Below are positions 13,609 to 14,366 of a stretch of DNA of 57,437 nt, in pieces. This DNA is from an uncultured Candidatus Saccharibacteria bacterium (GTDB lineage Bacteria; Patescibacteriota; Minisyncoccia; Sungbacterales; JACQCQ01), in NCBI GenBank assembly GCA_964494945.1, contig CAZBTX010000005.1, positions 1 to 57,437 of the forward strand. The letters run 5' to 3'. The notes under the pieces are model-generated. The model ran no database searches, was not told where the DNA came from, and worked only from the letters and a program-made list of their open reading frames with translations. Position numbers and translations under genes: made by a program. Positions within the stretch are counted from its first letter, which is position 1. The number at the start of each line of letters is the position of its first letter.

Positions 13609-13620
13609 AAATCTCTAAAT

Positions 13621-13651
13621 CAAAATCCCCGCTTTTAGGGCGGGGATTTTG
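13621..13651. terminator. Bidirectional intrinsic terminator between the hydrolase gene and rnpB
   Basis: CAAAATCCCCGC-TTTTAGG-GCGGGGATTTTG hairpin. Confidence 0.8.
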
Positions 13652-13659
13652 ACGTTTGC

Positions 13660-14174
13660 TTTCACATCCGTAAGCCGAATTCTGTTGTCACCGTGCCTCG
13701 CTACCGCTCGGCACTCAGCAACATGGGGCAAGCGACATGCGACATGGCAGTTACGCTAAAAGCGAACAGTACCTTGTCCCTTGTCGCTTGTTGCTTGTCA
13801 CTCGTGCTGAACAATAGTGAGGCACGATGCGTGGCCATCTGTCTTGGCGTACGATTGCTCGCACGCTCCAGCGGACTACTTGTCTTAGGGCGAGTTTGGA
13901 CCTCGCACTAGTTTGTCCTTGCACCAGATAGGGTTTTCCACCCGTGTATGTTGCCAAACACGGAAGTCGCGTTCGACGCGACACTTTTCACCTTTGGTCG
14001 TGACATTATTGTGGCGGTCACAACTAGTATAGTCTCTGTGGCACTTATCCCGCCAGCGCGCTCCGCGCGCAGCGTACAGCGGTTAGCGGACAGCGGATAG
14101 TCAAAACTATACGCTACGCGCCATACGCTATGCGCTAGGTGCGAAGCACACCGGGCGGCCATCTCGATGTAAAA
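13660..14174 (-). ncRNA. rnpB: RNase P RNA (type A-like) with expanded P3/P19 and no CR-I/P4 5' strand
   Basis: Minus strand shows P1 (uuuacauc/gaugugaa), P2 (UGGCC/GGCCA), CR-II AGUGCCACAGAGA, CR-III AGGUGAAA, GGUGCAAGGACAAA, P18 with GCAA loop, CR-IV AGACAGAUGGCC and CR-V ACAGAAUUCGGCUUAC. Confidence 0.9.
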
Positions 14175-14183
14175 GACCCTCTT

Positions 14184-14212
14184 ATTATATAGTATTGACT
14201 TTAGTTTGGCAA
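14184..14212 (-). promoter_or_regulatory. sigma70 promoter of rnpB
   Basis: TTGCCA-17 bp-TATAAT on the minus strand, about 10 nt upstream of P1. Confidence 0.85.
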
Positions 14213-14243
14213 TAGGTTAGCTACGTTCTCAAAGCCAGTTTGA

Positions 14244-14366
14244 CCCCGTTAGAGGTCCGATTTGCCTGCAAATTGGCGGCAATCTTAAGTCGGTTTTCTG
14301 ATAAAATGGCGTTTAGCCATGCTAAGGGTATTATGGCACTAAAGCGATTGCCTACCCCTAACGGGG
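14244..14366. repeat. CCCCGTTAG...CTAACGGGG element
   Basis: TTGACCCCGTTAGAGG at the left end and CCCCTAACGGGGTTTGAC at the right end. Confidence 0.85.

Follow-up and report, generated by a model that had tools for sequence, protein, structure and literature searches.

Apparent loss of the 5′ strand of P4 from a CPR RNase P RNA gene, most probably through collapse of an internal repeat during assembly

The window, by which we mean the whole 57,437-nt stretch of DNA analysed here, carries an RNase P RNA gene (rnpB) in which the 5′ strand of P4 is not found. An RNase P RNA truly built in this way would overturn the view of P4 as an indispensable catalytic core, and we therefore asked whether the absence belongs to the gene or to its assembly. 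The evidence set out below makes it very probable that the CR-I-less rnpB is an assembly collapse of two near-identical copies of an internal repeat, R, and not a real feature.

The RNase P RNA gene as assembled

The gene lies at 13655..14175 on the minus strand, as do all of its parts given below. A cmscan search with permissive filters matched 14175..13655 to positions 1-367 of the type A model RF00010 with 94.7 bits and an E value of 2.8e-29 (90.8 bits in a second scan). Both scores fall below the RF00010 gathering score of 100 bits because the columns from CR-I to P8 are absent and large insertions are present, and at Rfam gathering thresholds no RNase P RNA is called within the window. 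The first-pass annotation had described a gene without CR-I or the partners of P5 and P7, with its other conserved regions and promoter in place, and the alignment bears this out. CR-I/P4 5′, P5 5′, P7 5′, and P8 are absent, the CR-I model columns (GAGGAAAGUCCGG) being deleted or unpaired. The assembled gene keeps P1, P2, P10-P19, CR-II to CR-V, the promoter, and the terminator; P1, P2, CR-II, P12, CR-III, P13, P14, P15-17, P18, CR-V, and the P4 3′ strand ACAGAAUUCGGCUUAC are aligned with high posterior probability.

Read in the direction of transcription, the locus begins with a sigma-70-type promoter, TTGCCA-17-TATAAT, at 14184..14212 (11/12 matches); the layout TATTGCCAAA...TATAAT likewise stands upstream of rnpB in the relatives G001, G003, and G004. 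Between this promoter and the next gene, window 14196-14365, are 168 nt that include an inverted repeat (GACCCCGTTAG...CTAACGGGGT). A related, minor strain or species (depth 2-11 vs 80-100) has 40 other letters in their place, and a 27-44-nt core of them is repeated on four other contigs. The RNA opens with a segment that we call flank A (14156..14175), comprising the 5′ strands of P1 (14175-14165) and P2 (UGGCCG, 14161-14156) and matching the P1-P2 5′ side of G004. Next comes R, at 14053..14155, the proposed site of collapse, which occurs once in the assembly and at least twice in read-derived contigs. What had been annotated as an enlarged P3 is a 103-nt insertion module of three hairpins, 14155->14053, and not a simple helix: a closing stem CCCGG/CUGG encloses a hairpin GUGC-UUCG-GCAC, a long heptamer-repeat hairpin, and a hairpin GCGCGC-GGA-GCGCGC. 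Flank C (14032..14052) follows directly, with the 3′ end of P9, the P10/P11 5′ strand, and CR-II (C GGGAUAAGUGCCACAGAGAC), and is near-identical to the sequence 3′ of the P9 module in G004.

The specificity domain is intact, with CR-II (J11/12, ACAGA), CR-III (J12/13, GGUGAAA), and P12-P14 aligned at posterior probabilities near 1; within 13942..14026 the RF00010 alignment places P12 at 14026-13995, CR-III (AAGGUGAAAAG) at 13994-13984, P13 at 13982-13966, and P14 at 13963-13942. The 3′ strands of P11, P10, P7, and P5 (GUGGAAAACCCUAUCUGGUGCAAGG) occupy 13917..13941, of which the P7 and P5 strands are partnerless in the assembly. These strands are identical to CCCUAUCUGGUGCAAGG of G004, in which the partners AGAUAG and CAC are present. 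P15-P17 (13918-13873), P18 (13866-13847), and the P2 3′ strand UGGCCA (13837-13832) fill 13832..13918, again by the RF00010 alignment, and the aligned AGUCCGCUGGAGC and P18 GCGUGCGAGCAAUCGUACGC give P15-P18 and CR-IV in the type A arrangement rather than the type B layout of P5.1/P15.1. A by-eye comparison finds that the J15/16 region, window 13873-13885, reads AGU (CAAGUAGUCC). We take this position to be that of the GGU in E. coli M1 RNA (CGGGUAGGCU) that pairs with the tRNA 3′-CCA.

Between the P2 3′ strand and CR-V lies an enlarged P19 (13692..13826), an insertion that forms a long heptamer-repeat hairpin closed by the stem CGUGCCUC/GAGGCACG. It is made of a CGACAAG-type tract. Tandem-heptamer tracts (CTTGTCG/CGACAAG, AAATCAA, and others) are scattered through the genome, in P19 itself (13692-13826) and about 47 other places, examples being C1:125520, C2:109634, C8:6838, C9:4203, and window 51233. 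The RNA ends at 13659..13685 with the CR-V 3′ strand of the P4 pseudoknot (ACAGAAUUCGGCUUAC, 13685-13670), orphaned here by the missing CR-I strand, and the P1 3′ strand (13670-13659). A bidirectional intrinsic terminator hairpin at 13620..13652 ends both rnpB and the upstream serine-hydrolase gene.

The rest of the genome offers no replacement for the missing strand. The window is contig 5 of an 11-contig, 722,788-base assembly with a completeness score of 100%. No second rnpB was found in it, the remaining RF00010 matches having E values of 0.04-0.05 and 12 bits. The first-pass annotation had pointed to CR-I-like fragments, rnpA, and a protein-only RNase P as things to look for. A word search that allowed two mismatches for GAGGAAAGTCCG and took shorter words exactly turned up no GAGGAAAGUCCG-like CR-I word with rnpB-like surroundings in the rest of the 722-kb assembly; the matches that it did return are scattered in unrelated contexts, and none is followed by GAACAC. 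R was found nowhere else in the assembly. The protein subunit gene rnpA is intact (PF00825, 66 bits, C10:386-700, an ORF of 114 aa with a yidD-like ORF after it), and a search for a HARP/PIN_5 (PF08745) protein-only RNase P gave no match at E <= 0.01. Where no protein-only enzyme exists, cells cannot do without RNase P RNA. With rnpA present, no alternative enzyme, and an rnpB carrying all of its signals, a loss of P4 is not expected. The suggestion that the gene is decaying is likewise unlikely, as its promoter, terminator, conserved regions, and orphan 3′ strands are intact and the same as in relatives, and rnpA is intact.

Repeat R in read-derived contigs and a sister assembly

Four groundwater metagenome runs of a single study (X1-X4) carry the rnpB stretch and may include the source of the MAG itself; the runs of this study include SRR12113384, SRR12113385, SRR12113420, and SRR12113424. 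The data used are k=31 Logan contigs rather than raw reads. In three of the four runs (X1, X2, and X4), one flank contig stops at 14082 and the other begins at 14126, breaks that match the ends of R, and a separate 103-nt contig corresponds exactly to 14053-14155. This contig overlaps the flank contigs by 30 nt, which is k-1 and thus the signature of a repeat node at R. Its depth is 240, 24, and 270 in X1, X2, and X4, vs 61-93, 6.9-7.9, and 79-148 for the flank contigs.

The content of the gap is visible in X2, where a 156-nt contig reads, in RNA sense, the last 30 nt of R, 96 other letters (segment B), and the first 30 nt of R. This contig is a path from the end of R through B to the start of R. 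The extra depth at the two ends of R is equal in each run by depth bins (129.7/129.7, 13.0/13.1, and 132.4/132.3 for X1, X2, and X4), which indicates that the same kind of R-B-R contig exists in X1 and X4. The ratio of R to B depth is 1.85, 1.84, and 2.04 in the same order, and a ratio of about 2 means that R is traversed twice per B. The deposited assembly lacks at least one copy of R and a 96-nt segment between R copies. The hallmarks of repeat collapse, namely excess depth over the repeat, breaks at its ends, and a path from its end back to its start, are thus found in three of the four runs.

A second deposited assembly is in error at the same place. The 848-aa protein flanking rnpB is also encoded on contig JACOYZ010000002.1 of GCA_016181625.1, a sister MAG whose rnpB flanks are 100% identical to the window. 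Its rnpB contains window 14082-14151 twice in tandem, [..14151][14082..], a 70-nt duplication at L036:2564-2703. CR-I is absent there too and is thus found in neither of the two deposited assemblies. The first piece stops at the 99th base of R, as would be expected for the end of a k=100 unitig, and we read the sister MAG as carrying two R copies that are cut short and joined end to end, so that the remainder of the first copy, B, and 4 nt of the second (129 nt) are missing. Two assemblies of one population disagree exactly within R, the sister MAG keeping two copies of it; the deposited rnpB is wrong in both, and differently in each. Exact-protein look-ups with the flanking genes matched only Logan contigs that stop at R and this one NCBI sister MAG, a look-up with the 33-aa open frame across R returned no record, and JGI metagenome contigs scanned with the start of R and with the CR-II region gave no match.

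These data bear on the first-pass proposal of a deletion, real or in the assembly. The repeat and the depths favour the assembly. The AAGU microhomology suggested as the mechanism finds no support and is rejected; the breakpoints lie within the 103-nt repeat R. A real deletion allele, in which homologous recombination between R copies removed CR-I to P8, throughout or in part of the population, and left a dead or crippled rnpB, is the strongest of the other readings, and we consider it very improbable. Direct repeats of about 100 nt set 96 nt apart would be a good recombination substrate, neither deposited MAG contains CR-I, and in X3 a single 2405-nt contig runs straight through R, from flank A to R to flank C as in the window. 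However, the depth in X3 is only 4-6, a level at which graph cleaning could remove a short side path. In the other three runs, an R depth of about twice that of B leaves no room for genomes with a single R: a model of a single-R strain mixed with B from another strain predicts an R depth of 321-352, 33-34, and 344-413 vs the observed 240, 24, and 270, an overshoot of 34-47%. A deletion would also have struck an essential RNA in a 100%-complete genome in which neither HARP nor a second rnpB was found, and would have left the orphan 3′ strands of P4, P5, and P7 and all of the signals perfectly conserved.

A variant of this reading confines the A-R-C allele to part of the population, for example that sampled in X3. 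An essential ribozyme gene would in that case be disrupted time and again as its intragenic modules recombine, and would persist either as a dead allele among intact ones or with a partner to complete it. We regard this as very improbable.

The preferred reading, collapse of two R copies, has its own discrepancy in that B stands at 1.4-2.1 times the depth of the long flank contigs, vs 1.0 expected. This excess could stem from a coverage bias toward the G+C-rich gene, from related strains with R and B in common, or from two or more extra units. We hold our confidence at highly probable, short of certain, because of the read-through in X3, the 1.4-2.1x depth of B, and the origin of all runs in one study.

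The insertion module in relatives and the missing segment

Among 31 genomes (G000 and 30 relatives), 27 have an RF00010 match, 12 of these reaching the cut-off and 15 scoring below it. The three matching genomes of the same family, G001, G003, and G004, all contain GGGAGGAAAGUCCGAACAC. The P4 3′ strand of the window, ACAGAAUUCGGCUUA, recurs unchanged in G001, G003, G004, G006, and G008, and all five have its partner AAGUCCGAA; the P7/P5 3′ strand of the window (CCCUAUCU.GUGCAAGG) is common to G001 and G004.

The rnpB genes of G001, G003, and G004 each contain two to three direct copies of their own module of 97-149 nt, the copies being 84-100% identical and placed in different helices (P3, J5/7, P9, and P15-17). 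In G004, the copies lie at L024:1186-1310, 1520-1644, and 1823-1928, the first two (125 nt, 88.8% identical) in P3 and P9 and the third in P15-17. G003 has two identical 97-nt copies (100%; L025:688-784 and 1140-1236), and G001 has two copies of a 149-nt module at 88% (L017:1628-1776 and 1842-1983). The module of the relatives is built like R, with a closing stem CCCGG/CUGG, a hairpin GUGC-UUCG-GCAC, a long simple-repeat hairpin, and a G+C hairpin GCGCGC-GGGG-CGCGC. A genome search located the G004 module only within rnpB, in its three copies, and in one weak 58-nt match. A genome-wide mobile element was considered for this module and rejected, as it is restricted to rnpB apart from that match; its distribution suggests intragenic spread or gene conversion instead.

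The flanks of R belong to different modules of G004. By alignment, the left flank matches the P1-P2-P3 5′ side (ACAUCGAGAUGGCCG vs ACAUUGAGAUGGCCG) and the right flank matches the 3′ side of P9, P10, and CR-II (GCUGGCGGGAUAAGUGCCACAGAGACUAUACUA vs GCUGGCGGGAUCAGUGCCACAGAGACUAUACUA). Judged from these alignments, the single module of the window is a probable chimera that joins the start of a P3 module to the end of a P9 module, as expected when near-identical copies merge and all that separates them is lost. The G004 copies in P3 and P9 enclose CR-I, P5, P7, and P8. The true rnpB of the window would then be a normal, much-expanded type A RNA with two, perhaps more, three-hairpin modules of about 103 nt capping P3 and P9, in the order A (P1-P2 5′), R, B (about 96 nt), R, and C (P10 and CR-II onward). 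A short-read assembler would merge the R copies, walk from A through R to C, and lose B and one R, a total of 199 nt.

On position, size, and homology, segment B, which is known by its length and ends, would hold CR-I/P4 5′, P5 5′, P7 5′, and P8. The corresponding CR-I-to-P8 segment of G001 is about 63 nt by our own count, and a B of 96 nt is therefore of fitting size. We predict that B contains CR-I in a form like GGAGGAAAGUCC and P8 in a form like GCGGCUAACGGCCGC (GGAGGAAAGUCCGAAC...AGAUAGCGGCUAACGGCCGC; G(G)AGGAAAGUCCGAACAC ... AGAUAGCGGCUAACGGCCG(C)). The first-pass annotation had looked to reads for the CR-I segment: read-derived contigs do show 96 additional nt where CR-I would be expected, and the identification of these with CR-I is a prediction from position, size, and homology.

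Were B not to hold CR-I to P8 but, for example, to be the spacer of tandem modules, the RNA would truly be without the P4 5′ strand and would be catalytically dead or rely on a substitute. Segment B is defined by its length and ends, and its depth above that of the flanks could reflect tandem [R-B] units. Against this, CR-I to P8 lies exactly between the P3-type and P9-type positions in G004, G003, and G001, the 96 nt accommodate a segment that takes about 63 nt in G001, and the conserved orphan 3′ strands argue for existing partners. We judge this reading more improbable still. A split RNase P RNA, with CR-I to P8 supplied from another locus and paired in trans, is barely credible: nothing speaks for it beyond the apparent absence in cis, the rest of the assembly has no CR-I-like word in an rnpB-like context, no significant partial RF00010 match, and no further R, and B bears the ends of R itself on both sides, with the depth at those ends fully explained by the two flanks, R, and B.

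Two relatives show further features of module-bearing rnpB genes. In G001 (L017:1560-1790), CR-I is present and CR-II and P12 are absent, the module at the P9 position abutting CCAAAGGUGAAAAG. This absence, between two module copies, resembles the same module-to-module collapse and may point to a recurrent MAG artefact in the family. In G003, the P3 hairpin holds an 84-aa GIY-YIG ORF (PF01541, E 5.8e-18) at L025:396-650, between CCCCCCACCACUUUUGCAUU and AAUGCAAAAGUGGUGGGGGG, so that a nuclease gene is nested inside a ribozyme gene.

On the collapse of R copies that we favour, the lesson is one of data quality: the rnpB genes of this CPR family contain several near-identical modules of about 100 nt that short-read assemblers collapse. 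Where such a gene seems to have lost a conserved core, reads or assembly graphs should be consulted before any meaning is attached to the loss. The insertion modules as such genuinely belong to these RNAs and merit description.

Comparison with known systems

The window RNA shares with E. coli M1 RNA and the RF00010 type A family its P1-P2 frame, CR-II, CR-III, CR-IV/V, P12-P14, and P15-P18, as well as the P4 3′ strand ACAGAA..CGGCUUA and an rnpA partner in the genome. Unlike that family, as assembled it has no CR-I, P5 5′, P7 5′, or P8, and it carries the module of about 103 nt and a heptamer P19 of about 135 nt. It belongs with the diverged type A RNase P RNAs already reported from CPR bacteria. 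Those RNAs score below Rfam cut-offs, as do 15 of the 27 matches here, and have large helix extensions and missing peripheral helices; the GGU motif that pairs with tRNA CCA is missing in two thirds of CPR RNase P RNAs (Lui et al. 2021, PLoS Comput Biol, PMC8172020). None of the forms described there has lost P4/CR-I, in contrast to the window as assembled, where the loss is very probably not a biological variant. The same work describes a CPR bin misassembled at a repeat longer than the read span, an error that was detected through a missing RNase P RNA (Lui et al. 2021, PMC8172020).

The pattern at R is that of repeat collapse in a de Bruijn graph, with breaks at k-1, a repeat of high depth, a loop contig from its end to its start, and assemblies that disagree. 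It is unlike the usual case in that a single small RNA gene contains both copies of the repeat, so that their collapse looks as though the catalytic core had been precisely deleted.

Cyanobacterial RNase P RNAs reportedly contain short tandemly repeated heptamers (STRR) in P12, a finding said to go back to Vioque in 1997, and the heptamer tracts of the present genome resemble these repeats. Both the cyanobacterial and the window RNA are of type A and have peripheral helices lengthened by heptamer-repeat hairpins. The window RNA differs from the cyanobacterial examples in its phylum, in the helices concerned (P3, P9, and P19), and in the conserved three-hairpin module that surrounds the repeat hairpin.
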